Assembly: GCF_024397915.1 (NCBI RefSeq)
Contig: NZ_CP073347.1
Coordinates: 2,820,058 to 2,860,057, forward strand
Source of the DNA: Marinobacterium rhizophilum
GTDB lineage: Bacteria; Pseudomonadota; Gammaproteobacteria; Pseudomonadales; Balneatricaceae
Direction: 5' to 3'
Length of the DNA stretch: 40,000 nucleotides
Shown: piece after piece, positions 31-37,831 of the stretch
How the letters are laid out: every line of letters begins with the position of its first letter
How positions within the stretch are numbered: the stretch's first letter is position 1
The notes under the pieces: model-generated
What the model was told of the DNA's origin: nothing
What the model saw: only the letters and a program-made list of their open reading frames with translations
Databases searched by the model: none
Position numbers and translations under genes: made by a program

Positions 31-142
31 GCACGTCCACCGCTCATGCACATCCCTGTATCCGCGGTATTAATGCATCCATGCACGTCCACCGCTCCTG
101 CACATCCCTGTGCTCGCGGTATTAGTGCATCCATGCACGTCA
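31..142. repeat. 52-bp tandem repeat: 2 full units (31-82, 83-134) plus a 7-nt partial unit, running into the stop codon of the ThDP-enzyme gene
   Basis: GCACGTCCACCGCTC recurs at 31, 83 and 135, giving a period of 52. The two full units differ at about 5 positions. The third start reads GCACG-TCA, and that TCA (140-142) is the TGA stop of the minus-strand gene. The array may continue left of the window. Confidence 0.85.
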
Positions 143-1783
143 ATACAGCTTCTTCTGTGGGGGGCCGGCGAAGTTGAGCGGGCCGACCCGGTGCATGTCG
201 ACTTCGATCACCGCCGGGCCCTCGATGGCGATGGCGTCCCGGATGGCGGAATCAAACTCTTCGACCGAGCCCACCTGCCAGCTCGGCATGCCCATTGCGG
301 TGCCGACATCCCGGTAGTTGGGGGTATGCAGTTCGTTGTAGTACTGCCGACCGTCGAAGTAGTTGTTCTGGATGCCGCGCATTACACCGTAGCCGCTGTC
401 GTTCATGACGATCAGCACCAGGTCGGTGTTTTCCTGCACCATGGTGGCCATTTCGCCGATGCCGAGCATCAGGCCGCCGTCACCCACCAGACCCACGACC
501 TTGCGGGTCGGGTTGGCAATGGCGCTGCCGATGGCGTGGGCCAGGCCCAGGCCGATGGCACCGGCCAGTGAGTGGATATTGCGGTTGGCCCCGTTAACCT
601 CGAATAGGCGGCTGCCCCAGGTGCTGCCGGACATGGTGATGTCCCGCACCAGGATGCCATCCTCGGGCAGAGCGTCACGCAGTGCGTTGCAGATACCGGC
701 ATAGTTGCCCACCTGGTCGCTCAGGGCCGCCACCGACTGCTCAACCACAGTCGCAATGGCGCGGTCATAGTCCGCATCGACCTTTTCAGCCTCGCCCAGG
801 GCATCGGCCAGGTACGCCAGCGCGACTTTGGCATCGGCGCAGATAAAACGGTCAGCACGGTAGTTGCGGTTCTGCGCCGCCGCGAAGGCATCAATCTGTA
901 CCAGCGGCTTGCCGAACTCCAGCGAGTAGGTCAGGGTCTCGTTGCTGCGCAGGCGCGAGCCCGCCACGATCACCAGGTCGCTGTCCTTGCACAGGTCCTT
1001 GAAGGACGCGCTGTTGTGAAAGGCCCGCAGGCTGCGCGGATGACTGTCCGGCAGGATGCCGCGACCGTGAGTGCTGGACACCACCGGCACCCCCTTGTCG
1101 GCCAGCGCCTTTACTTGCGCTTCACAGCCGGCGGCACCGCCACCGATCCACAGCAGCGGGCGTCTGGCGCTTTTCAGCTGCGCCGCCAGGCTTTCCAGCT
1201 CGGCGGATGCCGGCACCGGCAGCACGGCGGGCTCGATGGGGCCCAGATCCAGCGGCAGTTCGATGGTTGCGGCCTGTACATCGATGGGGATCTCGATGCT
1301 GACCGGGCCCATGGGGACGCTGCGGGCGACACGGATGGCTTCACGCACAATGCCGGCGGCACTTTCCGGATGGCTGATGCGGTACGCCGCCTTGCTGCTG
1401 GCCTTGAGGAAGGTCAGTTGGTCCCTGGCTTCATGGATAAAGCTGGCATCGCGGTCCAGGTATTCGCGCTCCACCTGGCCGGTAATATGCAGCACCGGGC
1501 TCGCGGCATTGCCAGCCTCAATCAGGGAGCCAATGGCATTGCCGGCGCCGGCGCCGGTGCTGGTCAGGGCCACGCCCAGACCTGCAAAGCGGGCATGGGC
1601 ATCGGCCATGGTGACGCAGCCGGCTTCGCCGCGGGCCGGCACAAAGGCGATCTCGCCGCGACGGCCAATGGCATCGGCCACCGGCAGGTTATGGATGGAA
1701 ATCACGCCGTAGACGTTGGCAACGCCATGGGCTTCTAGAATGCGGGCGACGACTTCGCCGACGGTAACTTGTTCAGACATCAT
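140..1783 (-). CDS. Thiamine-diphosphate-dependent enzyme (acetolactate synthase large subunit / benzoylformate decarboxylase family)
   Basis: The ORF is 549 aa. The N-terminal Pyr domain reads GVANVYGVISIHNLPVADA. The C-terminal PP domain has the ThDP motif GDGGLMLGIGEMATMVQENTDLVLIVMNDSGYG. The track ORF starts at GTG 1789; ATG codons at 1783 and 1780 follow an AGGTGA Shine-Dalgarno, so the exact start is uncertain by 1-3 codons. Confidence 0.88.
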   Translation of the reverse strand: MMSEQVTVGEVVARILEAHGVANVYGVISIHNLPVADAIGRRGEIAFVPARGEAGCVTMADAHARFAGLGVALTSTGAGAGNAIGSLIEAGNAASPVLHITGQVEREYLDRDASFIHEARDQLTFLKASSKAAYRISHPESAAGIVREAIRVARSVPMGPVSIEIPIDVQAATIELPLDLGPIEPAVLPVPASAELESLAAQLKSARRPLLWIGGGAAGCEAQVKALADKGVPVVSSTHGRGILPDSHPRSLRAFHNSASFKDLCKDSDLVIVAGSRLRSNETLTYSLEFGKPLVQIDAFAAAQNRNYRADRFICADAKVALAYLADALGEAEKVDADYDRAIATVVEQSVAALSDQVGNYAGICNALRDALPEDGILVRDITMSGSTWGSRLFEVNGANRNIHSLAGAIGLGLAHAIGSAIANPTRKVVGLVGDGGLMLGIGEMATMVQENTDLVLIVMNDSGYGVMRGIQNNYFDGRQYYNELHTPNYRDVGTAMGMPSWQVGSVEEFDSAIRDAIAIEGPAVIEVDMHRVGPLNFAGPPQKKLY

Positions 1784-1876
1784 ATTCACCTGTTCTTGTT
1801 CGTAGGAGCTGCGCCTCGCAGCGAATGCTCCCGTGCCAAATTTGTTCGCCGCGGGGGCGCGGCTCCTACGGAAATA

Positions 1877-3343
1877 TTATTCGGCCCAGGGGTTCGGCGT
1901 GTCGCTCAGCCCCAGATAGACGCTCTTCTGTTGCATGTACTCGAGCACGCCCAGGCGTCCCTTTTCGCGACCCAGACCGCTCTCCTTGAAGCCGCCAAAG
2001 GGCGCCGATATGGAGAATTTCTTGTAGGTGTTGATCCAGATGGTGCCGGCCTCCAGCTGGCGACCGATGCGCCAGGCACGGCGGAAATCCTCGCTCCAGA
2101 TGCCGGCCGCAAGACCGAAGACGCTGTTGTTGGCGCGGGCCAGCAGGTCAGCCTCGTCATCGAACTTCAGCACCACCAGCACCGGCCCGAATATCTCTTG
2201 CTGACAGACGCTGGCCCCGTTATCCAGCCCGGCAATGATGGTTGGCGGGTAGTAGCTGCCCTGGGCCATGTGCCCCTCGGCCAGGCGGGTACCGCCACAG
2301 AGGATTTCGCCGCCCTCGGCGCGGGCCTGGTCGACAAAACCGGCCACCGACGCCAGGTGCGCCTCGCTGATCAGCGGTCCCATATGGGTGCCGGGCTCCT
2401 CCGGATGACCGACCCGCAAGTTGGCGGTCAATTCCAGCAGGCGGCCCATGAAGCGGTCATACACCTTGGCATGCACAAACAGGCGCGAGCCGGCGATGCA
2501 GGCCTGGCCCGAGGAGCTGAAGATGCCGTAAACGACACCCCTGGCCGCCAGCTCGATATCCGCATCCTCGAACACGATGGTGGGTGACTTGCCACCCAGT
2601 TCCAGCGACGTCGGAATCAGCTTTTCAGCGGCGACATGGGCCAGGTGGCGCCCGGTGCCGGTGCCGCCGGTAAAGGAGATCTTGCGCACCAGCGGGTGGG
2701 CCGCCAGGGCCTCACCCACCACCGAACCCCGGCCCGGCAGTACACTGAGCAACCCCTTCGGCAGGCCGGCTTCCTCGAACAGTTCGGCCAGAGCCAGCGC
2801 CGCCAGGGGCGTGGCATCGGCGGGCTTGACGATCACCGCATTGCCTGCCGCCAGTGCCGGGGCGATTTTCTGCATTTCGCTGGCAATGGGCGAATTCCAG
2901 GGCGTGATAGCGGCAATAACGCCCAGCGGCTCATGCACGCTCAGGGTCATGAACTCGCTCGAGCGCTGCGCCGGCAGCTGCTCATCCAGGGTTTCGCAGG
3001 CGGCGGCAAAATAGCGCGCAGTAGCCGCGGCACTCATGACCAGGCCGCGGGTTTCGGCCAGTGGCTTGCCGTTGTCCCGGGTCTGCATGGAGGCCAGTTC
3101 ATCGACACGCTGGCTGATCAGGTCCGCCACGCGGTACAGCACCGCCGCCCGCTCGTGGGGCATGCGGTTGCGCCACTGCGGTTCGCGCCAGGCACGTTCC
3201 GCCGCCTGTACGGCCTCTTCCACATCCTCTGCACTGGCCGTGGCGATTTCGGCATTCAGGCTGCCATCGGCCGGAAAATAGGTCGCGCGCACCGGGCCGC
3301 CCCCCTGCTTCCACTGGCCGGCAATAAAGATAGGTTTGGTCAT
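1877..3343 (-). CDS. NAD(P)+-dependent aldehyde dehydrogenase
   Basis: ALDH family motifs are present: ELGGKSP and the catalytic-Cys region FSSSGQACIAGSR. I placed the start at internal ATG 3343 (MTKPIFIAGQW) because GAGGAGA lies 6 nt upstream. The 20 extra N-terminal codons of the track ORF have no RBS. Confidence 0.92.
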   Translation of the reverse strand: MTKPIFIAGQWKQGGGPVRATYFPADGSLNAEIATASAEDVEEAVQAAERAWREPQWRNRMPHERAAVLYRVADLISQRVDELASMQTRDNGKPLAETRGLVMSAAATARYFAAACETLDEQLPAQRSSEFMTLSVHEPLGVIAAITPWNSPIASEMQKIAPALAAGNAVIVKPADATPLAALALAELFEEAGLPKGLLSVLPGRGSVVGEALAAHPLVRKISFTGGTGTGRHLAHVAAEKLIPTSLELGGKSPTIVFEDADIELAARGVVYGIFSSSGQACIAGSRLFVHAKVYDRFMGRLLELTANLRVGHPEEPGTHMGPLISEAHLASVAGFVDQARAEGGEILCGGTRLAEGHMAQGSYYPPTIIAGLDNGASVCQQEIFGPVLVVLKFDDEADLLARANNSVFGLAAGIWSEDFRRAWRIGRQLEAGTIWINTYKKFSISAPFGGFKESGLGREKGRLGVLEYMQQKSVYLGLSDTPNPWAE

Positions 3344-3369
3344 GATTATTCTCCTCGAAGCCCAAGGCT

Positions 3370-4161
3370 TCAGATCAACAGGGACGCGGTGCTGTGCCGG
3401 CACGCCCGGACAACGCTCAGCGCCGCCAGGGTCGACGTCTTGGGATTGCTCGGCAGCGGCAGGCCGCTCAGCTCGAGCTTCATTTCACCGAAACGGCCGC
3501 GGGCGCAGATCAGGTGCTGGTTGCGCTCGATTCCGGGGTCCGCCATCAGCTCGACCCGGGTATCGTCCATGCCGACACCGGCCAGGGCGATGGTCGCCGC
3601 CACATTGGCATTGGCCGGGAACCGCAATGCCGCCTCCCGGGCCGTGCCGCGATAAAACACCGTGGCTTCGGTAATGCTGTCCAGGTCGATCAGGGTTTCG
3701 GCCGGGCTGCCTTTCCAGCTTTTCGGGCTCTTGCGCGCGCAGTACACCACCTCATCCAGCCCCCCTTCTTTCGCCGCCGCCAGGCCATCGATACCGGCGA
3801 TGGCACCGGCCAGCGCATGGATGCGGGCCCGGCCCGCCACCGCCGCGCTCTGCAGCCGGTCCAGCAGCGCATTGTCGGCAAAGGCACCGACCGAAATCAC
3901 GCCCAGGTCCCAGCCCCGTGCCAGCACTGCCTCGCCGTGCTGACGAATTGCGCCCTGGCCGGCACATTCAACCACCAGGTCCGGCGTGCCGTTGCAGGCT
4001 TCGATATCACTGATCACCTGGACACCGGCGGCCACCTGGCCGCGCGCCGCCGCAACGCTAGTTACCGGTACCAGCAGCCACTGCAGGCTGAGGTCTTCGG
4101 GCAGCAGGGCGAGCACTTCGCGGGCCATGGCGCCAAAACCGATCATCATTAACTGTTTCAT
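3370..4161 (-). CDS. Aspartate dehydrogenase domain protein (NadX-like)
   Basis: The protein is about 263 aa. It has an N-terminal Rossmann segment MMIGFGAMAREV, and the C-terminal part (ANANVAATIALAGVG...NPKTSTLAALSV) is typical of L-aspartate dehydrogenase. The start is ATG 4161, preceded by GAGGAAA. Confidence 0.8.
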   Translation of the reverse strand: MKQLMMIGFGAMAREVLALLPEDLSLQWLLVPVTSVAAARGQVAAGVQVISDIEACNGTPDLVVECAGQGAIRQHGEAVLARGWDLGVISVGAFADNALLDRLQSAAVAGRARIHALAGAIAGIDGLAAAKEGGLDEVVYCARKSPKSWKGSPAETLIDLDSITEATVFYRGTAREAALRFPANANVAATIALAGVGMDDTRVELMADPGIERNQHLICARGRFGEMKLELSGLPLPSNPKTSTLAALSVVRACRHSTASLLI

Positions 4162-4172
4162 GCAGGCTTTCC

Positions 4173-4967
4173 TCAAAGATGCCGGTTAAAGCCGCCGGAC
4201 ACATCCAGTGCCGCGCCGGTGGTGAAAGACGCCAGGGGCGATGCCAGGAACACCAGCGCACGGGCCGGCTCCTCGGGCTTGCCCAGGCGGCCCAACGGGA
4301 TGCCGCGCTTGGCGGCGATGGCGGCGATCCAGCTGTCCCAGTCCATGCTCTTGTCGCTGCGATCTTCGAAGCGACGGCGCCACTGGCCGGATTCCACCAT
4401 GCCCAGCAGGATGGAATTGACGCGGATGCCCCTGGCGGCAAATTCGTGGGACAGCGAGTGGCTCAGGTTCAGCAGGCCCGCCCGTGCCGCCGAGGTGGCG
4501 ATCATGTGGGGTTCGGGCTGCAACGCCAGCAACGAGTTGACGTTGGTAATGGAGGCGCAGTCCGAGGCTTCCAGCATGGGCTGGAAAGCCCTTACCGGGT
4601 TGATCACGCTGAACAGTTTCAGTTCAGCCTCGGCCAGCCAGTCCTCATCCGCCGTTTCGGCGAACGAACTGACACGGCCCTGGCCGGCATTGTTGATCAG
4701 GCAGTCGACGCCACCGAAAGCCTCCCGGACCTGGGCGGCAAAGGCCTCAACCTGGCCGCGGTCCAGCACATCGCAGCACAGCGACAGCATTTGACCCGCC
4801 GGAAAGGCTTCACGCATCAGGCGCTCGGACTCGGCCAGGCGCGCGGGATTGCGGCCGCACCAGGCGACTTTTGCACCTTCTGCCAGCAGCAGACGCACGG
4901 TTTCCAGACCGATGCCGGAGGAACCCCCGGTCACCACGGCAACCCTGGCTGTCAGGTTAAAGCTCAT
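4173..4967 (-). CDS. Short-chain dehydrogenase/reductase family protein, atypical active site
   Basis: It has TGGSSGIG, NNAG and the NVNS serine. The position 13 residues after that serine reads TSAAR instead of the canonical YxxxK. Confidence 0.85.
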   Translation of the reverse strand: MSFNLTARVAVVTGGSSGIGLETVRLLLAEGAKVAWCGRNPARLAESERLMREAFPAGQMLSLCCDVLDRGQVEAFAAQVREAFGGVDCLINNAGQGRVSSFAETADEDWLAEAELKLFSVINPVRAFQPMLEASDCASITNVNSLLALQPEPHMIATSAARAGLLNLSHSLSHEFAARGIRVNSILLGMVESGQWRRRFEDRSDKSMDWDSWIAAIAAKRGIPLGRLGKPEEPARALVFLASPLASFTTGAALDVSGGFNRHL

Positions 4968-5835: not shown

Positions 5836-6357
5836 TCAGCCCCGCTTGATCTGCGACAGCGGGTGATCCTCGGGGTAGGTCGGGATCTGCGGCCTGGGCG
5901 TACCCAGCATCACGCACATCAGCGCATCTTCCTGCCCCGGGTTGAACAGGCCACGGTAGATGCCGGGCGGGATCGAGATCAGGTCGCGCTCGCGCAGGGT
6001 CGTCTCGAAACGCTCGCCGTTGTGCTCGACAAAGAGGTTGATGGTGCCGCGCAGCATGAAGAACACTTCCTCGACATCGTCATGCACATGCAGCGGGCCT
6101 TCGCACTGGGCCGGCAGCATCATGGTCGAAAAGGTGAAGTGCTCGGCCTGTACGGTATTGTTGTCCGCCCCCACGCCGGTAGCACCGGTTCCCATGTAGC
6201 GCATTTGCGCACGGCGGTACTTGGGGTCGTAGTCGGCCTGGAATTTCAGGGCGTCGAAATCGTAGGTGCGATCCTCAAAGCGGGCAATGCGACCACCGAG
6301 CCAATCACCCAGGGACTTGTCTTCCGGCTTTACCCAACCTTCGAACTTAAGCGTCAT
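5836..6357 (-). CDS. Cupin-domain protein
   Basis: The cupin metal motif PLHVHDDVEEVFFMLRG is followed by the second motif IPPGIYRG. The start is ATG 6357 (MTLKFEGW), preceded by GAGAGGA. Confidence 0.8.
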   Translation of the reverse strand: MTLKFEGWVKPEDKSLGDWLGGRIARFEDRTYDFDALKFQADYDPKYRRAQMRYMGTGATGVGADNNTVQAEHFTFSTMMLPAQCEGPLHVHDDVEEVFFMLRGTINLFVEHNGERFETTLRERDLISIPPGIYRGLFNPGQEDALMCVMLGTPRPQIPTYPEDHPLSQIKRG

Positions 6358-11739: not shown

Positions 11740-12039
11740 TCAGTAGCCCAGTCGCGCCATCTCGGCCTGGAAGCTGTCGGTGCTCCAGAGCGCGGCGGCT
11801 TCAGTACGTGAACCGCGCGCATTCAGCGCGGCAACCAGGTCATCCAGTTCCACCACCCCGGTGGCGAAGACCGCTTCAAGGTGCTCCACCAGGGCTTCTT
11901 CATAACGGCTGGGTTCGCGGTGACGCGTCTGCCAGACAATATTCTGTGCCTGGCCCGGCACCTGGATGTTGTTGATGCCGGCTTCGCTATTGGGCTCGTT
12001 CCTGAACCAGGTGGCGAGCTTGGGGTTGTACTCGGTCAT
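11740..12039 (-). CDS. Small conserved-looking protein of unknown function (99 aa)
   Basis: It is tightly embedded between the ferredoxin and oxygenase genes, with gaps of 11 and 13 nt. There is no recognisable catalytic motif. The C-terminal segment VVELDDLVAALNARGSRTEAAALWSTDSFQAEMARLGY looks helix-turn-helix-like. Confidence 0.6.
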   Translation of the reverse strand: MTEYNPKLATWFRNEPNSEAGINNIQVPGQAQNIVWQTRHREPSRYEEALVEHLEAVFATGVVELDDLVAALNARGSRTEAAALWSTDSFQAEMARLGY

Positions 12040-12438: not shown

Positions 12439-12889
12439 CCCCGCAGAATTCACAGGGGTATGTCATGAAAAGCCTCTGAAAAACACCGAGAATGACTGCA
12501 AAAAATGAATAAAAACAAAAATTAAGCAATTTTTACATGACCCTTAAACCTGGAATCAAAGGGACTCCGAGCCCCCGGAACTCAAAAAAAACATAAAATG
12601 GCAGCGGAAAAATGCACCGGAACTTGGATAAAGCGATAGTTCAAATATGATCAAGTAGCGCGCACGGCAATGCTCGCCTCAACCGCCGGGCGATATGCAG
12701 ACAGGAGAAAAGCCAGCCAGATGGCGACTGTACGCAGGGGCGTTACAGCAAAAACGACAGGAACAGTAACCAGGGAAGTACAACAGGCCAGGCAGGGGTG
12801 CATACAGGCCGCCGGGATCGACAGGATGGGCGACTATCCCGGGCAATTCCGGGCAATCCCGGCGATTTCAGCAAGCGCTATGAAAGCGA

Positions 12890-13080
12890 TCAGAACTGGG
12901 ACGAATGCAGCCCCAGGGTGCGGGACAGGTCTTTGGAGGCCTTGACCACCTCCTCTCGGATGCGGCCGTCGAACGCGTCACGGGACAGGCTTCCCAGCGG
13001 GCAACTTACGCAGCTCGTGTCCACAAAGGCGCAGCGACAATACGCCCAGCTGTTTCAGGAGCTCCAGGCTCAGCACCTAA
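12890..13080 (-). pseudogene. Silent copy A of the iclR 3' end
   Basis: It keeps the TGA stop and the frame for about 39 codons. It differs from the live end at about 4 positions in the first 120 nt; beyond that it is decayed with indels. Confidence 0.85.
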
Positions 13081-13168
13081 GCCGGGATTGGCAGGATGGG
13101 CGACTATCCCGGGCAATCCGGGCAATTCCGGGCAATCCGGACTATTTCAGCAAGCGTTATGAAAGCGA

Positions 13169-13359
13169 TCAGAACTGGGACGAATGCAGCCCCAGGGTGC
13201 GGGACAGCTCTTTGGAGGCCTTGACCACTTCCTCACGGATGCGGCCGTCGAACTCGTCACGGGACAGGCTTCCCAGCGGGCAACTTACGCAGCTCGTGTC
13301 CACAAAGGCGCAGCGACAATACGCCCAGCTGTTTCAGGAGCTCCAGGCTCAGCACCTAA
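13169..13359 (-). pseudogene. Silent copy B of the iclR 3' end
   Basis: As for copy A. There are 4 differences from the live end in 120 nt: one D-to-E change and three synonymous changes. Confidence 0.85.
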
Positions 13360-13447
13360 GCCGGGATTGGCAGGATGGGCGACTATCCCGGGCAATCCGG
13401 GCAATTCCGGGCAATCCGGACTATTTCAGCAAGCGTTATGAAAGCGA

Positions 13448-13638
13448 TCAGAACTGGGACGAATGCAGCCCCAGGGTGCGGGACAGCTCTTTGGAGGCCT
13501 TGACCACTTCCTCACGGATGCGGCCGTCGAACTCGTCACGGGAGAGGCTTCCCGGCGGGCAACTTACGCAGCTCGTGTCCACAAAGGCGCAGCGACAATA
13601 CGCCCAGCTGTTTCAGGAGCTCCAGGCTCAGCACCTAA
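13448..13638 (-). pseudogene. Silent copy C of the iclR 3' end
   Basis: As for copy A. It carries a private L-to-P change (CTG to CCG). Confidence 0.85.
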
Positions 13639-13706
13639 GCCGGGATTGACAGGATGGGCGACCATCCCGGGCAACCCCGGGCAATCCGGACTATTTCAGA
13701 AAGCGA

Positions 13707-14495
13707 TCAGAACTGGGACGAATGCAGCCCCAGGGTGCGGGACAGGTCTTTGGAGGCCTTGACCACCTCCTCACGGATGCGGCCGTCGAACTCGTCACGG
13801 GAGAGGCTTCCCAGCGGGCAACTCACGGAAACCGCAGCCACAATACGCCGGTCATCCACGCTCAGTACCGGTGCCACACAGGCTGCCATGCCGGGATTGA
13901 AGTGCCCCCAGGCAATCGCGGCATCCTTGCCACGGTAACTGCGCACCCGCTCGAGCAAGGCCTCGGGCGTGGCCGGAGTGGTTTCGGTAAAACGCTCGAA
14001 GCCGTAATCCTGGTACAGCTCCAGGATGGCATCATCCGACAGCGTGGACAGCATGAGCTGACCGGTCACGGTAGCATGGGCCGGCCAGCGTGTGCCCACC
14101 GATACGGTACTGGTGAAGGGGCCGGTGGCCTGGAAGCATTCGACAATTACCGTGTTGTGGCCATCGCGAATCAGCAGCTGACTGGCCAGGGTTGTCTGGT
14201 TGCGCAGGTGCTCCAGTATCGGCCGCGAAGGCTCCAGCAACTCCAGGCTGGAGAGGTACTGGAAACCCAGATCCAGGATGCGGGAACTCAGGGTATAGCG
14301 GTTGCTGTCACCGACACGGCGCAGAAAGCCGCAGTTTTCCAGGGTGTACACCAGGCGGAAGGTACTGGAACGGTTCACCCCGATCGCCTCGGCCAGTTCG
14401 GATATCGATTGTTCCCGCTTGTGCTTGCTGAACTGCTGCAACACAGCCAGCCCCCGCACCAGGCCCGGGACTATATAACGGTCATCTGTTTCCAT
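13707..14495 (-). CDS. IclR-family transcriptional regulator
   Basis: It has an N-terminal winged HTH (VPGLVRGLAVLQQF...ISELAEAIGVNRSSTFRLVYTLENCGFL) and a C-terminal IclR effector domain. The start is taken at ATG 14495 (METDDRY); the 41 upstream codons of the track ORF are not IclR-like. Confidence 0.9.
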   Translation of the reverse strand: METDDRYIVPGLVRGLAVLQQFSKHKREQSISELAEAIGVNRSSTFRLVYTLENCGFLRRVGDSNRYTLSSRILDLGFQYLSSLELLEPSRPILEHLRNQTTLASQLLIRDGHNTVIVECFQATGPFTSTVSVGTRWPAHATVTGQLMLSTLSDDAILELYQDYGFERFTETTPATPEALLERVRSYRGKDAAIAWGHFNPGMAACVAPVLSVDDRRIVAAVSVSCPLGSLSRDEFDGRIREEVVKASKDLSRTLGLHSSQF

Positions 14496-18597: not shown

Positions 18598-18889
18598 CCT
18601 GCCCCAAGCCGTTACAGCGCACTGGGCTGGCAGGCAGGGATGGCCAGCGCCTGGCGTGGCGGCCCCGCTTCTGCCTCCGGACTTTGCGCCGGCCACAGGC
18701 AACTCTAAAAAGCGCTTTCTAATCAAATGGTTGATACCAGCCATGAACATTTAACGCACAACTGTTTCCTCCGCGCATACTGCTATACTTATGACTGCTA
18801 TAAGCAGCAGCATATAGACTGCTGCTTGCCAGCGACGCAACAGTCTTTTGAGACAGGGGGATCTCAGCCCAACTCGATGGAGGTGTGTC

Positions 18890-19444
18890 ATGCAACGGCA
18901 CTATTACATCAGTGATAACCTCGACGAACTCGAAACCGTCGAACATGAACTGGAAGCCAGCGGCATCAGCGTTGAGCAGATCCATGTACTCAGTGAAAAT
19001 GATGCAGCTATCGAACAACACCACCTGCCGGAAGTGGTGTCATTTATGAAGCAGGACGTTGTGCACTCCGGCGAGATTGGCGCCGTCGTTGGTGTCGTGC
19101 TGGCCGCACTGATGCTGGGCGTGGCCTACATGATGGGCTGGACCGAAACCGCCGCCGGCTGGATACCCTTTGCATTCCTTGCGGTCGTCATACTGGGCTT
19201 TTGTACCTGGGAGGGTGGCTTCTTTGGCATTCAGGAACCGAACGCGCATTTTCGCCGCTTCAAACGCCTGTTAAAGCACGGCAAGCACATCTTTTTTGTC
19301 GATGTTGAGCCGGAGCAGGAGGATATTCTCAACAAGGTGGTCAAACAGCACCCGCGGCTCAAGCTTGCCGGCACCGGTGATGCCGCGCCGCACTTCGTGG
19401 TCGCCTGGTTGCAAAAGTGGCACCAGTTCAAGCGCACCATCTAG
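18890..19444 (+). CDS. Hypothetical membrane protein (two central TM helices)
   Basis: The start ATG 18890 (MQRHYYISDNL) is preceded by GGAGGTG. The central hydrophobic segments are GAVVGVVLAALMLGVAYMMGW and WIPFAFLAVVILGFCTW. It is followed by a terminator hairpin. Confidence 0.65.
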   Translation: MQRHYYISDNLDELETVEHELEASGISVEQIHVLSENDAAIEQHHLPEVVSFMKQDVVHSGEIGAVVGVVLAALMLGVAYMMGWTETAAGWIPFAFLAVVILGFCTWEGGFFGIQEPNAHFRRFKRLLKHGKHIFFVDVEPEQEDILNKVVKQHPRLKLAGTGDAAPHFVVAWLQKWHQFKRTI

Positions 19445-19456
19445 ATCCTCTGATCC

Positions 19457-19490
19457 CGCCCGGCAACCCCTGGTAGCCGGGCGTTTTCGT
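19457..19490 (+). terminator. Rho-independent terminator of the 18890-19444 gene
   Basis: There is a perfect 8-bp stem, CGCCCGGC (19457-19464) / GCCGGGCG (19476-19483), with an 11-nt loop, followed by TTTTCGT. Confidence 0.7.
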
Positions 19491-19800
19491 CCCCGCCCTT
19501 ACCGAAAAACAGCAAGCGGCTGAAGAAGGCACAAGACAAGGGCCGGCTTGCGCCGCCATCAGCCCCATTAGTGCCATCAGCACTACGAAAGATCACTGCA
19601 ATGCTGCCCCTGCCCCTGCCCGCCAGTATCCTGGTAGCCCTGATTTTTAGCCCCCGCTTTTACCGAAAACAGCAAGCGATTGAGGAAGGTACATGACAAG
19701 GGTCGGCTTGCGCCGCCATCAGCCCCATTACTTCCGTACGCACTACGAAAGACCGCTGCAGTACTGCCGCTGCCCGCCAGTATCCTGGTAGCCCTGATTT
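19486..19800. repeat. Two degenerate tandem copies (161 and 154 bp) of the 3' end plus flank of the cox subunit-IV-like gene
   Basis: TTAGCCCCCGtCTTTTcCGAAAA (live, 19801) aligns with TTAGCCCCCGCTTTTACCGAAAA (19647) and TTCGTCCCCGCCCTTACCGAAAA (19486). The shared motifs CGCCATCAGCCCCAT and CCCGCCAGTATCCTGGTAGCCCTGATTT recur with the same spacing. Confidence 0.8.
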
Positions 19801-20139
19801 TTAGCCCCCGTCTTTTCCGAAAAATAATAGGCGACTGAGGAAGACGTAATCAGCTTCAACCGCCATCAGCCCCATCAGTACCAGCAGGCACAGGGGGGGA
19901 ACCAGGATGGCATACACAATGGCCAGCCTTTCCCACGCCATGTGCATGAAAATCGACACGATCAGGCCGGCCTTGAGCAGCATGAAAATAAGAATCAGGG
20001 CCCAGCGCAACGGGCCCTCGAAATGAAAATAGTCCACCAGGTAAGACAGGGTACTGAGGATAAACAGCAACCCCCATATTTTCAGATAGAGGCTCACGGG
20101 ATGCTGCTGCCCCTGTTTAATCTCGTGCATAGATTCCAT
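19801..20139 (-). CDS. Small haem-copper oxidase subunit (bacterial cytochrome oxidase subunit IV-like, 3 TM)
   Basis: The protein is 112 aa from ATG 20139 (MESMHEIKQG), 11 nt after the subunit III stop. It has three hydrophobic helices and lies last in the oxidase cluster. Confidence 0.7.
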   Translation of the reverse strand: MESMHEIKQGQQHPVSLYLKIWGLLFILSTLSYLVDYFHFEGPLRWALILIFMLLKAGLIVSIFMHMAWERLAIVYAILVPPLCLLVLMGLMAVEADYVFLSRLLFFGKDGG

Positions 20140-20149
20140 TGCCGGCACC

Positions 20150-20860
20150 TCACCAGAGATAAAAGAACGCGAAAATAAAGACCCAGACCAGGTCCACGAA
20201 ATGCCAGTAGAGCCCGGCGATCTCGACCACCTGGTAGTCCCCGCTGCTTTCGTAGTGCCCACGCATTACCTTGTAGGCCACCACGCTGAGGTAAATTACA
20301 CCAATGGAAACATGCAGCCCGTGAAAGCCCGTGATCATGAAAAAACTGGCACCAAACTGCGCCGCGCCCTCGGGGTTTCCCCAGGGTCTTACACCCTCTT
20401 CAATCAGCTTGCTCCACTCGAATGCCTGCATGCCGACAAAGGCCGCGCCCAGCAGCGCCGTCGCCAGTATCAGCAGCCCTGTTCTGAGCCGCGCCCGGCG
20501 GTAGGCGAAATTGACGGCCATGGCCATGGTGCCGCTGCTGCTGATCAGTACAAAGGTCATGATCGCGATCAGAATCAGCGGTATCGAGTGCCCCCCAAGG
20601 GTCAAGGCAAAGACTTCGCTGGTATTGGGCCAGGGTGCGGTGGTGGTCATGCGCACGGCCATGTAGCCGATCAGAAAGCAGGAAAACACAAAGGTATCGC
20701 TGAGCAGGAAAATCCACATCATGGCCTTGCCCCAGGACACCTGCCTGAAGGCCTCCTTGTCCGACGACCAGTCGCGGTACAGACCTTCCCAGCCACCGGG
20801 TGCGGCGGCTTCTGTCGGGGGCCGCTCGGCTAGCGGCGCATCTCTTGAAGACCGGGCCAT
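20150..20860 (-). CDS. Haem-copper oxidase subunit III family protein
   Basis: The protein is 236 aa with multiple TM segments and a typical subunit III C-terminus (GLYWHFVDLVWVFIFAFFYLW). The RBS GAGGTGA is present. Confidence 0.88.
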   Translation of the reverse strand: MARSSRDAPLAERPPTEAAAPGGWEGLYRDWSSDKEAFRQVSWGKAMMWIFLLSDTFVFSCFLIGYMAVRMTTTAPWPNTSEVFALTLGGHSIPLILIAIMTFVLISSSGTMAMAVNFAYRRARLRTGLLILATALLGAAFVGMQAFEWSKLIEEGVRPWGNPEGAAQFGASFFMITGFHGLHVSIGVIYLSVVAYKVMRGHYESSGDYQVVEIAGLYWHFVDLVWVFIFAFFYLW

Positions 20861-23342: not shown

Positions 23343-24767
23343 TCAGGGTGCGCCCTTGTCTGCCAGGGCTGCGATAAAGGCGCCCAGAGCCTGTAACTGG
23401 GCATCGTTCAGGCTGTAGGCCGGCATCACGGACGCATAGCCCTTCACCGTCTGAGCCGCCGGGCTGACAATCGATTCCCGTACATAGGCATCGTCAACCT
23501 GAACCTCGCGGCCATCCATCAGGGTCTCGGTAGCGCCGTAAAGTCCTTTCCAGCTGGGGCCAACACCCGGGCTGCCATCGAGGCTGTGGCAGGCCAGGCA
23601 TCCCAGGGTTTCGGCCAGCTGCTGTCCGTCCGACACCCGCTGCTCCTGCGCGGCATCAGTGGCCTCGGGCCCCAGCGAGCGAATCAGTGCAACCAGCGCC
23701 TCCAGGTCGGCATCCGCCAGCGCATAGGGCACCATGACCGCCGCATAGCCCTGTACCATACGGGCACCGGGCTGCAGGATGGATTCCTTCAGATAGTCCT
23801 CATCGACGCGAACCTGGCTGCCATCGGCCAGGGTCTCCAGGCTGCCATATAGCCCCAGCCAGCCGGGCCCCAGACTCTTGCTGCCATCCAGGCTGTGACA
23901 GGCAACACAGCCATGCTGCTGGGCCAGCGCACGACCGCGCTCCACCTCAGGATCAAGGCCCGAGCGCTGCGCCGACGCCTCCTGCGTCTGTGCGAAGGTA
24001 GGCTGCTGTCCCAGCCACTGCTCGAAGGCCTCGGGCGCTTCGACGATCATTCGTCCGCGCATGTTGTAGTGACCCAGGCCGCAGAACTCGGCACAGAGGA
24101 TTTCATAGGAGCCCGTCACCATGGGGGTAAACCAGAAATAGGACACCAGGCCCGGCACCATATCCATCTTGCTGCGAATCTGCGGAATGTAGAAGTTGTG
24201 CAGCACATCGTTTGAACGCTGCAGCACCTTGACTGGCAGGCCCACCGGCAAGCGCACCTCGTTACCCCGCACGATAACGTCATCCTGACCGCTGGCGTCC
24301 TCGGGGTTCAGCCCCAGCGGGTTGGCGGCGCTGATCCACTCCACGCTCGAGGTGCCCAGCCGACCGTCGGCGCCGGGCAGGCGAAATGCCCATTGCCACT
24401 GCTGGCCCACGACCTCGAGTTCATAGGCATTGTCGGGCACCCGGACAAAATCGTTATAGACCACCAGGCCCGGCGCCAGCAGCCCCGCGATGGCCACAGT
24501 GGTCACGCCAATCAGCCACCATTCCAGGGGTTTGTTTTCCGGCTCGTACTGGGCCCTGAGACCCTTGCGGTGACGAAAGCGAATGAGGGCCAGGGCCATG
24601 AACAGGGTAATGGCGACGAAGAATACGCCGGTGATCAGCAGGGTAAGAAACAGGGTATCGTCAATCGAGCCCCAGTTTGAAGCCGCTTCGGTCGCACGCC
24701 AGGGATTGAACAGATGAAACAGAACTGACGCGATAACGATAAAGATAAAAACGATTGCCAATGCCAT
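23343..24767 (-). CDS. Cytochrome c oxidase subunit II fused to two c-type cytochrome domains
   Basis: There are two N-terminal TM helices, the CuA motif CAEFCGLGHYNM, and then two CxxCH haem-binding sites (CVACH and CLACH). Confidence 0.92.
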   Translation of the reverse strand: MALAIVFIFIVIASVLFHLFNPWRATEAASNWGSIDDTLFLTLLITGVFFVAITLFMALALIRFRHRKGLRAQYEPENKPLEWWLIGVTTVAIAGLLAPGLVVYNDFVRVPDNAYELEVVGQQWQWAFRLPGADGRLGTSSVEWISAANPLGLNPEDASGQDDVIVRGNEVRLPVGLPVKVLQRSNDVLHNFYIPQIRSKMDMVPGLVSYFWFTPMVTGSYEILCAEFCGLGHYNMRGRMIVEAPEAFEQWLGQQPTFAQTQEASAQRSGLDPEVERGRALAQQHGCVACHSLDGSKSLGPGWLGLYGSLETLADGSQVRVDEDYLKESILQPGARMVQGYAAVMVPYALADADLEALVALIRSLGPEATDAAQEQRVSDGQQLAETLGCLACHSLDGSPGVGPSWKGLYGATETLMDGREVQVDDAYVRESIVSPAAQTVKGYASVMPAYSLNDAQLQALGAFIAALADKGAP

Positions 24768-25254: not shown

Positions 25255-25404
25255 GACTTATACACAGCGGGAAAAGACGGCCCGGAACAGCAGGGCCAAT
25301 GCCAAGGATCAGCCCTGCGCAAACCGCGCCCACGGCAGAACGTACATCCTGTATAGACCGCTCCTGCGCATCCATGCGCCCGCGGCATACCGTTGTGCCC
25401 TTGC

Positions 25405-25500
25405 TCACACCGTCTCGTTGACCGCCTTTGTCAGTTCCATGATGGCCTTCTTGCCATCACTGAAGCGCATCAGGCAGTTGTCCAGGGCAAAGAACGGCCA
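25405..25500 (-). pseudogene. Silent copy 1 of the pntB 3' end (most diverged)
   Basis: It has a TGA stop and the frame is kept. It carries four private non-synonymous changes (T-to-K, G-to-S, R-to-L, L-to-F). Confidence 0.85.
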
Positions 25501-25572
25501 ATTGTGGATAGCGCAGGCCCGAACCGCACGGCCAGGGACGACCCACCAGGCGGCAGACCGTCGTTCCCTTGC

Positions 25573-25668
25573 TCACACCGTTTCGTTGACCGCCGTTGTC
25601 AGTTCCATGATGGCCTTCTTGCCATCGCCAAACAGCATCAGGCAGCTGTCCCTGGCAAAGAGCGTCCT
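25573..25668 (-). pseudogene. Silent copy 2 of the pntB 3' end
   Basis: It has a TGA stop. Its differences from the live end are mostly synonymous (GTG, GAA, TTT, CTG), plus one N-to-S change. Confidence 0.85.
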
Positions 25669-25740
25669 GTTGTGGATAGCGCAGGCCCGAACTGCACGGC
25701 CAGGGACGGCCCACCAGGCGGCAGACCGTCGTTCCCTTGC

Positions 25741-25836
25741 TCACACCGTTTCGTTGACCGCCGTTGTCAGTTCCATGATGGCCTTCTTGCCATCACCGAA
25801 GAGCATCAGGCAGTTGTCCCGGGCAAAGAGCGTCCT
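25741..25836 (-). pseudogene. Silent copy 3 of the pntB 3' end
   Basis: It has a TGA stop and encodes LFARDNCLMLFGDGKKAIMELTTAVNETV, identical to the live C-terminus. It is embedded in the ATG-initiated 62-codon track ORF 25741..25929. Confidence 0.85.
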
Positions 25837-25962
25837 GTTGTGGATAGCGCAGGCCCGAACCGCACGGCCAGGGACGGCCCACCAGGCGGCAGCCCGTACA
25901 TCCTGTATAGACCGCTCCTGCGCATCCATGCGCCCGCGGCATACCGTACATCCTGTACATAC

Positions 25963-26058
25963 CTAAACCGTTTCGTTGACCGCCGTTGTCAGCTCCATGA
26001 TGGCCTTCTTGCCATCACCGAAGAGCATCAGGCAGCTGTCCCTGGCGAAGAGCGGCCA
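25963..26058 (-). pseudogene. Silent copy 4 of the pntB 3' end (TAG type)
   Basis: It shares the TAG stop and the GTT and GAG codon states with the live gene. Like the live gene, it is directly preceded by the ~50-nt X element. Confidence 0.85.
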
Positions 26059-26130
26059 ATTGTGGATAGCGCAGGCCCGAACTGCACGGCCAGGGACGGC
26101 CCACCAGGCGGCAGACCGTCGTTCCCTTGC

Positions 26131-26226
26131 TCACACCGTTTCGTTGACCGCCGTTGTCAGTTCCATGATGGCCTTCTTGCCATCGCCGAAGCGCATCAGG
26201 CAGTTGTCCCGGGCAAAGAGCGCCCT
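26131..26226 (-). pseudogene. Silent copy 5 of the pntB 3' end
   Basis: It has a TGA stop, three synonymous differences and one L-to-R change. Confidence 0.85.
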
Positions 26227-26294
26227 GTTGTGGATAGCGCAGGCCCGAACTGCGCATCCATGCGCCCGCGGCATACCGTACATCCTGTACATAC

Positions 26295-27689
26295 CTAAAC
26301 CGTTTCGTTGACCGCCGTTGTCAGCTCCATGATGGCCTTCTTGCCATCGCCGAAGAGCATCAGGCAGTTGTCCCTGGCAAAGAGCGGGTTGGGCAGGCCC
26401 GCAAAGCCCGGGCTCAGGCTGCGCTTGACCACCACCACGGTACGCGCCTTGTCGACGTTCAGGATCGGCATGCCGTAGATCGGGCTGCCCTTGTCTTCCC
26501 GCGCCATGGGATTGGTGACATCGTTGGCGCCGATCACAATGGCCACGTCCGTCTGTTCGAACAGCGCATTGACCTCCTCCATCGGCTGCATCTTGTCGTA
26601 GGCGACCTCGGCTTCGGCCAGCAGCACGTTCATGTGGCCGGGCATGCGCCCCGCCACCGGATGCAGGCCATAGATCACCTCGATGCCGCGCCGCTCCAGC
26701 GAGTCGGCCAGGTCGCGCACCGCGTGCTGCGCCTGGGCCATGGCCAGGCCAAAGCCCGGCACGATCACCACGCGGCGGGCGCTCTCGAGCAGCATGCCCA
26801 CTTCCTCCGGCGAGGACGACTTCACCTTGCCGGCATAGACCTCATCGGCATCCATCACGGCCCCACCGGCCTCGGCAGCCGAACCAAAGAGTACCGCGGT
26901 GAGGGAACGGTTCATGGCCACGCACATGATGCGGGTGAGGATAATGCCCGACGCCCCCACCAGGGCACCGGACACCACCAGCACGCTGTTACCCATGATG
27001 AACCCCGCCGCCGCCGCCGCCAGCCCCGAGTAGGAATTCAGCAGGGCTATCACCACCGGCATGTCAGCACCACCAATGGGCATGACCAGGGTTACCCCCA
27101 GCACCAGGGCCAGCACTGTGAGCAATACCAGGGTGCTGCTGTCACCGCTGCCGCTGATAAGTGAGCCCGCCAGTGCCAGCACGGCGGCAAAGAGCGCCAG
27201 GTTCAGGCCGCCCATGCCCCGGAAACCCAGCGGCCGACCCGGCAGCAGTTCCTGCAGCTTGGCAAAGGCCACCGCACTGCCGCTGAGGGTAACCGCGCCA
27301 ATCAGCAGCGTCAGGCAGATGGCCACCAGTGCCACCAGCCCCTGGGGGCCTGCGGTCGCGGTCTGGCCCAGAAAACTGGCCGCCGCCACGCAGAGCGATG
27401 CACCGCCACCAAAGCCGTTGAGCAGCGCCACCATCTGCGGCATCGCCGTCATCTGGATGCGGATCGCCAGCACCGTGCCGACCAGCGACCCCAGCACCAC
27501 GCCACCGAGTATCCATTCATAGGACAGGATCGACCGATCCAGCAGGGTCACCACCACCGCCACCAGCATGCCGATAGCCGCCATCTGGTTGCCACGCACC
27601 GCGGTACGCGGCCGGGTCAGGCCCTTGATGCCACCGACGAACAGCATGGCCGCCAGCAGGTAAAAACCATCAACCAGCAACAGATTCAT
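26295..27689 (-). CDS. pntB: NAD(P) transhydrogenase subunit beta
   Basis: The protein is 464 aa, with a membrane domain followed by a dIII NADP(H) domain (VIIVPGFGLAMAQAQH...GANDVTNP...VVVKRS). It lies in pntAA-pntAB-pntB order. Confidence 0.95.
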   Translation of the reverse strand: MNLLLVDGFYLLAAMLFVGGIKGLTRPRTAVRGNQMAAIGMLVAVVVTLLDRSILSYEWILGGVVLGSLVGTVLAIRIQMTAMPQMVALLNGFGGGASLCVAAASFLGQTATAGPQGLVALVAICLTLLIGAVTLSGSAVAFAKLQELLPGRPLGFRGMGGLNLALFAAVLALAGSLISGSGDSSTLVLLTVLALVLGVTLVMPIGGADMPVVIALLNSYSGLAAAAAGFIMGNSVLVVSGALVGASGIILTRIMCVAMNRSLTAVLFGSAAEAGGAVMDADEVYAGKVKSSSPEEVGMLLESARRVVIVPGFGLAMAQAQHAVRDLADSLERRGIEVIYGLHPVAGRMPGHMNVLLAEAEVAYDKMQPMEEVNALFEQTDVAIVIGANDVTNPMAREDKGSPIYGMPILNVDKARTVVVVKRSLSPGFAGLPNPLFARDNCLMLFGDGKKAIMELTTAVNETV

Positions 27690-29174: not shown

Positions 29175-29448
29175 TATTTTTCTCCTGTACGATTGAATAA
29201 ATATTTAAACAGCGAACGCGGTTTAATTTAACATCAGGATTTTAAACTCATTAATATTCAGACCAGCGCTTGCATAAAGTTGCGCAACAACTTACCCATA
29301 CTGCATTTGAATATTTTCAAATAAACATCAACCAGCATTAACCCCCGACAGCCACACCAGGCCTTAAATACAACTAGAATATGACTGTATTTTTATTTTC
29401 GACTCAAAACAGAAGATTTTATCTTTGCAAGGAACCTTTTTTATTCGC

Positions 29449-29503
29449 TTTTACCTTTCACCTTTCACCTTTACCCTTGCCCCTTGCCCCTTGCCCCTTT
29501 TAC
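29449..29503. repeat. 7-nt-periodic microsatellite; the minus strand reads (AAGGGGC)x3-AAGGGTA-(AAGGTGA)x2
   Basis: The plus strand reads TTTTACCTTTCACCTTTCACCTTTACCCTTGCCCCTTGCCCCTTGCCCCTTTTACC. C-runs at 29474-76, 29480-83, 29487-90 and 29494-97 give a G3+N3 x4 motif on the minus strand. Confidence 0.85.
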
Positions 29504-29538
29504 CAATAACTAGTTACTAGTCACCAATCACTTCTTTC

Positions 29539-30926: not shown

Positions 30927-31931
30927 TCAGTTCTTGAAGCGCGGAATAATATGCTCGCCGTACTGGGCGATAATATTTTCCTCGTCGCCGTTATCCAGAT
31001 AGATATTGAACTGGGTGGTACCGGCTTCTTTCAGGTGTTTTAGTTTGGCGATATGCTGCTCGGCTTCGCCCAGTACACAGAAGCTCTCGACAATTTCCGG
31101 TGTAATGAAGTCCAGGTAGGGGTTATCGCTCTGGCCATGTTTGGAGTAATCGTAGCCTTTGCGCTTCTCGATATAGTCGGTCAGGCTTTTGGGCACCAGG
31201 CCACTGTCGGTACCGTATTTTTCGACGATATCGGCCACATGGTTGCCCACCATGGCCGGGAACCACTTGGTGGACTCGACGCAGCTGGCCCTGTCGCCGA
31301 AATAGGCCGGCGCTGCCGCGATGACCTTGAAGTTCGACATGTCACGACCGGCCTCGACCCCGGCGGCGATGGCCTGGTCGGCCAGCCACTTGATCAGCGA
31401 GGGTTCGCCGATCTGCAGGATCACGCCATCCCCCACTTCGCCCGCGGTCTTCAGCGCCATCGGGCCGTAGGCCCCGATATGCACCGGCAGCTCGTAACCC
31501 TCGGCCCAGGGAAACTGCACCGGTTCCGGGCATTCCCCATACATCACTTCCTCGCCACGGACCATGGCTTTCACCTTGGTGGTGAACTCGGCCACGCGGG
31601 CCAGGGTGGCGGGCTTCTTGCCCATCACCCGCACCGAGCTGTCGCCGCGCCCCAGGCCCACTTCAAAGCGGCCACCGCTCTGCTTGGCCAGGCTGCCGAA
31701 CAGGCTGGCCGCCAGTGACCAGTCCCTGGCATTGGGGTTGGTGACGCAGGGCGCGAACTTGATGCGCGAGGTGTGCTCCATGCACATGGCGATGGCCGGA
31801 TAGCACTCGCGCCACAGGATATGGGAGTCGTAAAACCAGCAGTAATCGAAGCCGGCCTCTTCGGCCTGTTTTACCAGGCTGCGGGCACGGTCGTGGCTGA
31901 CAAAACCTTTAAAGCAGATACCAAATTCCAT
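30927..31931 (-). CDS. Luciferase-like (LLM-class) oxidoreductase, probably F420-dependent
   Basis: It has the LLM fold N-terminus MEFGICF...AEEAGFDYCWFYDSH. It sits directly between fno and the M20 hydrolase in the F420 operon. The start ATG 31931 lies 6 nt after AGGAGA. Confidence 0.75.
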   Translation of the reverse strand: MEFGICFKGFVSHDRARSLVKQAEEAGFDYCWFYDSHILWRECYPAIAMCMEHTSRIKFAPCVTNPNARDWSLAASLFGSLAKQSGGRFEVGLGRGDSSVRVMGKKPATLARVAEFTTKVKAMVRGEEVMYGECPEPVQFPWAEGYELPVHIGAYGPMALKTAGEVGDGVILQIGEPSLIKWLADQAIAAGVEAGRDMSNFKVIAAAPAYFGDRASCVESTKWFPAMVGNHVADIVEKYGTDSGLVPKSLTDYIEKRKGYDYSKHGQSDNPYLDFITPEIVESFCVLGEAEQHIAKLKHLKEAGTTQFNIYLDNGDEENIIAQYGEHIIPRFKN

Positions 31932-31971
31932 AGTCACTCTCCTGGGTCTTTGTTTTTATCGAGGATGAAAA

Positions 31972-32643: not shown

Positions 32644-32750
32644 CGACTCAGATCCTCTTGTTCTTGTTGTTTCAAATGACTGTCGGTTGCGCTTTTGTCG
32701 TTTCAGGAAGCCGTTGCTGCGGCCCGTCCAGGCCTCAGGCCCGGCGGGGT

Positions 32751-36437: not shown

Positions 36438-36451
36438 GGCTTTTCTCCTGT

Positions 36452-37582: not shown

Positions 37583-37736
37583 GATCACAGCCTCCGTTAT
37601 TGTTTTTGGTGGGGCCTTGTAGAGTTCAGGTCAAAGGTCGCCGTGCCTGCACAACAACTTTTTACCAAACGGTAAATTTAACTTACACCATATTTTGCCA
37701 AGTGGTCAAATATTTTTACAGGCATCGAAAGAAGCA

Positions 37737-37831
37737 GGGGGAAGGGGGAAGGGGGAAGGGGGAAGGTTCAAGGGACAAGGGACAAGGGACAAGGGACAAG
37801 GAGTGTAAGGAGCAAGGGGCACGGGGCAAGG
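37737..37831. repeat. 7-nt-periodic G-run microsatellite: (GGGGGAA)x4, (GGGACAA)x4, and degenerate GGGGCAx units
   Basis: G5 runs lie at 37737-41, 37744-48, 37751-55 and 37758-62. G3 runs lie at 37772-74, 37779-81, 37786-88 and 37793-95. The sequence GGAGCAAGGGGCACGGGGCAAGG follows. Confidence 0.9.

Follow-up and report, generated by a model that had tools for sequence, protein, structure and literature searches.

Why should an intact gene be followed by further copies of its own end, stop codon included, and do such copies serve the gene? This question is raised by iclR, located in a 40,000-nt stretch of the Marinobacterium rhizophilum genome (contig NZ_CP073347.1, positions 2,820,058 to 2,860,057; the 40-kb window hereafter). 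Three additional tandem copies of the iclR 3′ end and its flank lie 3′ of the intact gene. We consider it likely that this array is a lineage-specific tandem duplication (a macrosatellite), formed by a template switch and reshaped by indels, unequal exchange and occasional exchange with the live tail, and not a device. An earlier reading made from the sequence alone (the sequence-only reading) treated the array as specific to iclR, but the same structure is present 3′ of pntB and cox4 in the same window.

Anatomy of the array behind iclR

Tandem Repeats Finder (TRF) reported 12839-13827 as 3.6 copies of a 279-nt period with 95% matches, and the blastn self-comparison aligned 12811-13568 with 13081-13827 at 93.7% identity (E=0). 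The repeat search recovered a 145-nt core in four copies at spacings of 279, 279 and 259 nt, and the units were head to tail with a near-constant period (279/279/259) by all three analyses. The TGA codons are positioned at 12890, 13169 and 13448 in the silent copies A, B and C, and at 13707 in the live gene. The sequence-only reading had described four tandem copies with these stops and periods, placed between the iclR stop and the promoter of the Rieske operon, and all of this was reproduced. Its coordinates were right for the array, while the gene and its boundary were corrected to a coding sequence (CDS) at 13707..14495 and to AATCCCGGC at 13890-13898. The features are listed in Table 1.

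Each unit is composed of a 120-nt tail (T; 39 codons, VSCP...HSSQF, plus TGA), a spacer (S) and a junction zone (Z). The spacer is 79-88 nt long, or 68 nt 3′ of the live stop, and Z is 71 nt long and lies directly 5′ of the next tail in gene orientation. Consecutive tails are therefore separated only by 68-88 nt of spacer and 71 nt of gene-derived junction zone. As the earlier reading had noticed, the frame of every silent copy is open over 39 homologous codons and the stop. The live tail differs from each silent tail at 4 of 120 positions (3.3%), and the silent tails differ from one another at 4 (A-B), 6 (A-C) and 2 sites (B-C). Relative to the live IclR protein, these differences amount to E236A in A, D251E in B, and L229P plus D251E in C. 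The spacers that follow B and C match at all 88 positions, the distal spacer shows 6 mismatches and a 9-nt gap against the other spacers, and the spacer after the live stop is without an 11-nt segment and one 9-nt sub-repeat found in the others. The variable number of this sub-repeat, CCGGGCAAT, was also seen as described before, with about 2 to 3.4 copies depending on the spacer.

The silent units contain minus-strand open reading frames (ORFs) of just 44 codons each (12890-13024, 13169-13303 and 13448-13582) because the indels in Z break the reading frame. An antisense ORF of 283 codons (12798..13649, plus strand) spans three units; it exists because the 279-nt period is a multiple of three, and it carries no weight as evidence. 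The three 44-codon ORFs and the antisense ORF are made by the repeats, which is a warning for annotation.

Table 1. Coordinates of the iclR array and of the sister arrays in the window
Feature	Coordinates	Strand	Basis or remark
iclR CDS, intact, 262 aa, IclR helix-turn-helix (HTH) and C-terminal domains	13707..14495	-	Pfam PF09339, PF01614; 100% identity to M. rhizophilum UTW10169.1
Live tail T0, last 39 codons + TGA	13707..13826	-	116/120 identical with each silent tail
Live zone Y, orthologous coding counterpart of Z	13827..13888	-	matches the L001-L003 orthologues
Gene-side copy of the bracketing repeat, GCCGCGATTGCCTGG...CAATCCCGGC	13890..13922	-	core AATCCCGGC at 13890-13898; live/unit homology ends here
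Spacer 3′ of the live stop, 68 nt	13639..13706	-	sequence comparison of spacers
Silent unit C	13448..13638	-	Z 13568-13638; tail 13448-13567; TGA 13448-13450
Spacer after C, 88 nt	13360..13447	-	88/88 identical with the spacer after B
Silent unit B	13169..13359	-	Z 13289-13359; tail 13169-13288
Spacer after B, 88 nt	13081..13168	-	3.4 copies of CCGGGCAAT
Silent unit A, distal	12890..13080	-	Z 13010-13080; tail 12890-13009; most private changes
Distal spacer with flank-side bracketing repeat and hairpin	12811..12889	-	array end at ATCCCGGC (12811-12818)
First terminator-like site 3′ of iclR, past the array	12714..12730	-	aligns with a T-rich L001 site
pntB sister array, last 90 nt + flank, 5 silent units, period 168	25333..26386	-	live tail 26295-26384
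pntB silent tails	26131-26220, 25963-26052, 25741-25830, 25573-25662, 25405-25494	-	TRF, blastn, alignment
cox4 (subunit IV) sister array, 2 silent units, period 160	19469..19887	-	older, more decayed

The junction zone was compared with zone Y, its counterpart in the live gene. The Z sequence is identical across A, B and C, and aligned with Y at 44 matches, 6 mismatches and 33 gap columns. Two collinear blocks, GGCGTATTGTsGCTGCG (16/17) and CTGAGCsTGGA (10/11), gave a score that was reached by 0/500 shuffles, which supports the earlier division into a well-conserved tail and about 70 nt that are collinear and broken by indels. Z equals Y with three replacement indels (24->7, 5->16 and 6->20 nt). 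The alignable blocks, taken with the boundary AATCCCGGC, are 35/37 identical, and this is the level of the tail, so Z differs by indels and not by age; Z as an old, slowly decayed copy was rejected on this ground. Z as a derivative of the downstream flank was also rejected, with 376/500 shuffles scoring as well. For the filler within the Z indels no template was found, and no words of >=10 nt from nearby sequence occurred beyond the collinear blocks.

Homology between the live gene and the unit ends at AATCCCGGC, and the distal end of the array is marked by GATCCCGGC at 12811-12819, followed by unique sequence; (G)ATCCCGGC at these positions is the partner of AATCCCGGC. An imperfect direct repeat of about 30 nt thus flanks the unit on both sides, its gene copy lying at 13890-13922 and its flank copy, reading GCCGGGATTGCCCGG...CGATCCCGGC, at 12811-12863. 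The two copies match collinearly at 13/15 and 10/10 positions; each match is reached by 2-3% of shuffles, and the repeats are positioned exactly at both ends of the homology. The flank copy also makes up both arms of an imperfect hairpin (12810-12826 / 12848-12864; DNA fold of -19.4 kcal/mol, z=-1.6). Bracketing repeat and hairpin are the substrate expected for duplication by misalignment, and from them we infer the template-switch step.

Age of the array and possible exchange among its units

The iclR loci of five relatives were used for comparison, namely L001 (a metagenome-assembled genome with 94% amino acid identity), L002 (M. profundum), L003 (M. sedimentorum), L004 and L005. The array was absent at 5/5 of these loci, and about 87 kb of sequence from the relatives' loci yielded no repeat whose period exceeds 100 nt. 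Between the iclR stop and the Rieske ferredoxin gene lie 1339 nt in the window versus 545-750 nt in the relatives, and the excess over the L001 gap, about 817 nt, corresponds to three units inserted into an intergenic region that is otherwise 520-750 nt long. In zone Y the live gene matches the orthologues of L001-L003, and the silent version is the derived one. The synonymous divergence (dS) of iclR to the nearest relative is 0.59 while the silent tails are 3.3% from the live tail, so the array is probably either young relative to the split from that relative or recently homogenized. The identity of Z together with that of the B and C spacers gives the branching order A,(B,C), with the edge unit A as the most diverged silent unit; because the B and C tails differ at 2 sites only, their split is the most recent duplication.

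Seven sites vary among the iclR tails, and they were polarized with L001-L003 as outgroups. GTA is derived and common to all silent units, and GAA and GAG(E) are derived and common to B and C; private changes number two in A and one in C. The sequence-only reading had argued from mosaic variants for exchange among copies. Unit A's GAG and GAC, two of the sites in question, are ancestral states that the live gene also carries, but the third, CTC at 13803, is found in the live tail and in C, against CTG in the outgroups. This site is the sole conflict with the tree A,(B,C) and alone yields both four-gamete failures in iclR. It needs either conversion or parallel mutation, and the other iclR sites need no exchange.

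The arrays behind pntB and cox4

The pntB gene (CDS 26295..27689, minus strand), whose product is identical to an annotated M. rhizophilum protein, is followed by an array that shows higher-order structure. In L009, the closest pntB relative, in which PntB is 96% identical and the pntB-to-cox2 synteny is the same, the corresponding gap is 671 nt versus 1528 nt in the window, and the pntB tail array was not found there. The cox4 gene (CDS 19801..20262, minus strand) faces a convergent gene (18848..19444), and each cox4 unit contains the tail, intergenic DNA and the end of this convergent gene; the distal unit adjoins the ancestral flank. The cox4 stop and the convergent stop are about 45 nt apart in L001, which has no such array, versus 356 nt in the window. 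The cox4 silent units retain ancestral codons (TTG CTG ... GGT) while the live tail has drifted synonymously, which is what an old duplication with selection on the live copy alone should look like.

All three arrays lie at operon ends, 3′ of minus-strand genes. Their units have diverged unequally, by about 3% in iclR, 6-10% in pntB and 20-25% in cox4, and the duplication process has therefore been repeated, with at least three occurrences of different age in these 40 kb of M. rhizophilum.

Variation among the pntB units was strongly mosaic and more informative on exchange. Eleven incompatible site pairs (four-gamete failures) were found within 90 nt, and unit S2 is close to the live tail, with the same GTT TAG ending and the same spacer bearing the palindromic REP-like element described below. 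The tail endings are of two types, GTT TAG and GTG TGA, and differ only in synonymous or stop-preserving ways. Changes among the live tail and S1-S4 were 7 synonymous and 2 non-synonymous, against a neutral expectation of 22-28% synonymous (P=0.002). When pntB and iclR were pooled, 11/16 changes were synonymous (P=0.0006, or P=0.02 against a model in which the units are snapshots of an evolving live tail). The private changes of the most distal unit, S5, were 4 non-synonymous and 1 synonymous, as expected for free decay. Selection on the protein thus appears to have filtered the variation of the inner pntB units, which implies that the expressed end has served as the source of their tails or has traded sequence with them. 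On these comparisons, sequence exchange between units, with the live tail taking part, is strongly indicated in pntB and weakly in iclR.

Other repeats were observed in the window and in a relative. A REP-like (repetitive extragenic palindromic) element with a core GYRCATCCWTGYRC and CCGCGG and ACCGCTCC modules, in units of about 52 nt, occurs at 31-141, 25333-25400, 25887-25960 and 26250-26294, that is, directly 3′ of the stop of a thiamine pyrophosphate (TPP)-enzyme gene (140..1789) and within some pntB spacers. The copies at the two loci are 26/32 identical, a score reached by 0/1000 shuffles. In L009, positions 3230-3350 3′ of pntB hold two copies of a palindromic direct repeat, GGCGGTTTCCTGAAAACGGyTCCTGyGTTTTCAGGAT, which is unlike the tail array at this place in the window. 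Inside the cox2/cytochrome c fusion gene (23343..24767), a 180-nt direct repeat with 70% identity (23416-23903) coincides with two Pfam cytochrome c domains and probably goes back to an old duplication of the domain, which sets it apart from the tail arrays.

Origin of the arrays and the alternatives

The anatomy of the iclR array suggests how it may have formed. A nascent strand, after copying the hairpin-forming iclR 3′ flank, would have re-paired about 270 nt upstream inside the gene, with the imperfect direct repeat of about 30 nt and its exact core AATCCCGGC as pairing partners. Re-copying would then have doubled the final ~190 nt of iclR together with ~80 nt of flank. This founding duplication would have been harmless, since the stop codon lies within the duplicated segment and the gene is thus completed by its first copy, leaving the second one silent. 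The silent copy presumably gained the three replacement indels of Z afterwards, an outcome that can be read directly from the Z-Y alignment. Unequal homologous exchange may then have produced three silent units in the branching order seen, B and C separating last, and slippage may have altered the number of 9-nt sub-repeats in the spacers. Occasional exchange of sequence among units, the live tail included, would let selection on the protein filter the tail variants. A duplication of such a size will survive only if it leaves the gene intact, which means across stop codons at operon ends, and this requirement is enough to account for the content and position of the arrays, gene tails at operon ends. 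We regard the iclR array as an ordinary kind of event that is unusually frequent in the M. rhizophilum genome.

Three points weigh against this explanation. Although the silent coding copy is 182 nt long, all three replacement indels are confined to the 62 nt nearest its junction (P ~0.04 if independent), and plain slippage does not predict such clustering, nor the untemplated filler. Units of 279 nt that are 96-100% identical should be prone to deletion, and their persistence could point either to frequent formation or to selection. A count of three arrays in 40 kb is also far above the expectation for a typical bacterial genome.

The clustering and origin of the Z indels, the two types of pntB stop and the number of arrays leave some room for a dedicated, lineage-specific mechanism acting at operon 3′ ends, which we consider unlikely. 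Candidates are enzymes bound to hairpins or REP elements, a transposase of the RAYT (REP-associated tyrosine transposase) type, error-prone break-induced replication, or reverse transcription from mRNA 3′ ends, and the scrambled junction zone would be the signature of the mechanism. The occurrence of three arrays at operon ends within 40 kb, with none in about 87 kb of the relatives' DNA, is in keeping with this idea, as are the end of the iclR unit at the 3′ arm of the hairpin, the REP-like palindrome inside the pntB spacers and 3′ of the gene at 140..1789, and the complex replacement indels adjoining the iclR junction. However, genes for a RAYT, a transposase or a reverse transcriptase were absent from the window, the three arrays have no junction motif in common, the iclR spacer is unrelated to the REP-like element, and the Z filler has no templated source. 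Scrambling near the junction was rejected as a general rule, since the cox4 units are best conserved at their own junction, and the restriction to 3′ ends is predicted by a purely neutral filter as well. That M. rhizophilum repeatedly builds and keeps tail arrays at operon ends, possibly triggered by hairpins or REP elements, with silent tails recombining often enough to come under purifying selection, is a doubtful proposition.

Less probable still is that the array is kept for a function in cis, such as structure in the iclR 3′ untranslated region (UTR), insulation of the Rieske promoter from read-through, or hairpins that stabilize mRNA. In favor of such a function, the array separates iclR from the conserved promoter/operator region of its probable target operon, every spacer carries a hairpin, and the array has survived although repeats of this kind should be unstable. 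The RNA fold of the iclR unit was no better than that of shuffles (z=0.2), no Rfam family reached the gathering threshold anywhere in the window, and none of the terminator-like sites lies inside the array, the first being at 12730-12714. The relatives do without the array, and the same structure follows two genes unrelated to iclR, of which one is convergent with its neighbor. From the position of this first site we infer that iclR transcripts would cross about 0.9 kb of array before reaching it, so the likely consequence of the array is an iclR 3′ UTR that is longer by about 0.8-0.9 kb. No function of the iclR array has been demonstrated.

A programmed C-terminal cassette system of the pilE/pilS type, in which silent tails recombine into the live gene, was suggested by the words silent and live in the sequence-only reading. 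Frame and stop codon are retained in the silent copies, one four-gamete conflict was found in iclR and many in pntB, and the variation is biased to synonymous changes. Nevertheless, we hold this to be very improbable: each 39-residue tail differs by only 1-2 residues, the targets (a cytoplasmic regulator, a transhydrogenase subunit and an oxidase subunit) have no evident reason to vary, 2/3 of the 'mosaic' iclR sites are ancestral states, and a synonymous bias would also result if the units now and then exchanged sequence unequally with a gene under selection. With at most two residues differing in any silent tail, the data do not support cassette switching.

An assembly artefact hiding a single true unit, which the earlier reading had named as a way to refute the array, is just as improbable, because A, B, C and the live copy differ by substitutions and indels (A and B by 4 tail sites, 6 spacer mismatches and a 9-nt spacer indel) that an assembler cannot invent from one template, and the neighborhood has two more arrays whose units have diverged; what stays uncertain is only the exact number of the nearly identical B and C units.

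Mobile elements were considered as well. The other alternative of the earlier reading, a dispersed mobile repeat such as a REP or a miniature inverted-repeat transposable element (MITE), was rejected, as no further copies of the iclR unit exist in the 40-kb window. The spacer and junction zone had no match above shuffles elsewhere in the window on both strands, and a metagenome scan with a 22-nt junction-zone word returned two chance matches only, in unrelated coding sequence ending ...QQRELLKQLGELR*. Thirty large ORFs of the window have ordinary metabolic functions, and neither a transposase nor an integrase nor a reverse transcriptase is among them. A remnant of an integrative element was rejected, given no integrase in the window and no cargo between the tails.

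Known systems, neighboring features and significance

The lac amplification of E. coli is comparable in several respects. Tandem repeats there are bordered by 4-15 bp of homology, arise by template switching and are expanded by unequal crossing-over, and the switching is usually over hundreds to thousands of bp within one fork (PMC1428787). The founding distance in iclR, about 270 nt, fits that within-fork range, and the junction indels of iclR are more complex than the 1-3-bp changes reported there (PMC1428787). Both systems have head-to-tail direct repeats whose copy number changes later by homologous exchange, and a short G/C-rich founding homology, which in iclR is an exact core of 8-10 nt in the imperfect repeat of about 30 nt. 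In contrast, the units here are 160-279 nt versus 7-32 kb, and the arrays are old enough to have diverged units, with no gene-dosage selection evident. This kind of event is well known; for these particular arrays no published description was found, and literature searches yielded no account of gene-3′-end tandem arrays or of such repeats in Marinobacterium.

The mycobacterial interspersed repetitive units (MIRU) of Mycobacterium tuberculosis, a variable-number tandem repeat or minisatellite type, form a dispersed family with 40-100 bp units at many loci. Like the arrays here, they are intergenic repeats at operon gene boundaries that may overlap ORF ends, and are lineage-specific with a copy number that is probably variable; here, however, each array is built from the tail and flank of its own gene, and no unit is shared. 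The pilE/pilS system of Neisseria is a silent-cassette system for antigenic variation. Promoterless partial copies near an expressed copy are found in both, and sequence may have been exchanged between copies here as well, whereas the M. rhizophilum tails show almost no amino acid diversity, belong to cytoplasmic or membrane housekeeping proteins and are in strict tandem, including stop and flank. Diversity-generating retroelements consist of a template repeat and a variable repeat at a gene 3′ end. Despite the likeness of a near-identical copy of a gene 3′ end near the gene, the copies here include the stop and non-coding flank and the 40 kb contain no reverse transcriptase; such an element was rejected, as only 3/7 variable sites have A in a silent copy and no reverse transcriptase domain is present. 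With REP palindromes and bacterial interspersed mosaic elements (BIMEs), the iclR array shares a spacer hairpin 3′ of the stop, and the pntB array holds a true REP-like element; unlike them, the iclR unit has no other copy in the window and is mostly coding sequence of the adjacent gene.

Several other features of the window were observed. A 99-aa ORF at 11740-12039, within the Rieske oxygenase operon, carries the 'recombinase-like HTH' domain PF20552; it is kept at the same place in array-free relatives and is probably unrelated to the arrays. Intergenic heptamer arrays are present at 29448-29504 and 37736-37831 (CTTTCAC x8 and AGGGGCA x13). In M. profundum (L010), CGAGGTG x13 at 4093-4183, also reported by TRF as a 28-nt unit AGGTGAAAGGGGCG..., lies in the same intergenic position between an M20 peptidase gene and pntA, and in L001, TTCAGGG x5 (5867-5901, locus coordinates) lies about 100 nt upstream of the iclR start; heptamer repeats seem to be a feature of the genus. 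A coenzyme F420 cluster, here in a gammaproteobacterium, occupies 30927-36461 and is also found in M. profundum (L010). Its genes encode a luciferase-like monooxygenase, a protein of the F420-dependent NADP oxidoreductase family, F420 ligase, CofC, CofD and a CofH-like radical SAM protein.

Taken alone, the iclR array is a neutral structural variant and a useful strain marker. The recurrence deserves attention, as three tail arrays of different ages are found in 40 kb and none in the relatives. If the process behind them were specific to the lineage, it would represent an undescribed concerted evolution between the 3′ end of a bacterial gene and a downstream reservoir of its own copies. If such arrays occur genome-wide, M. 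rhizophilum would be a natural system for studying tandem duplication at terminators and hairpins, and exchange between genes and their partial copies.

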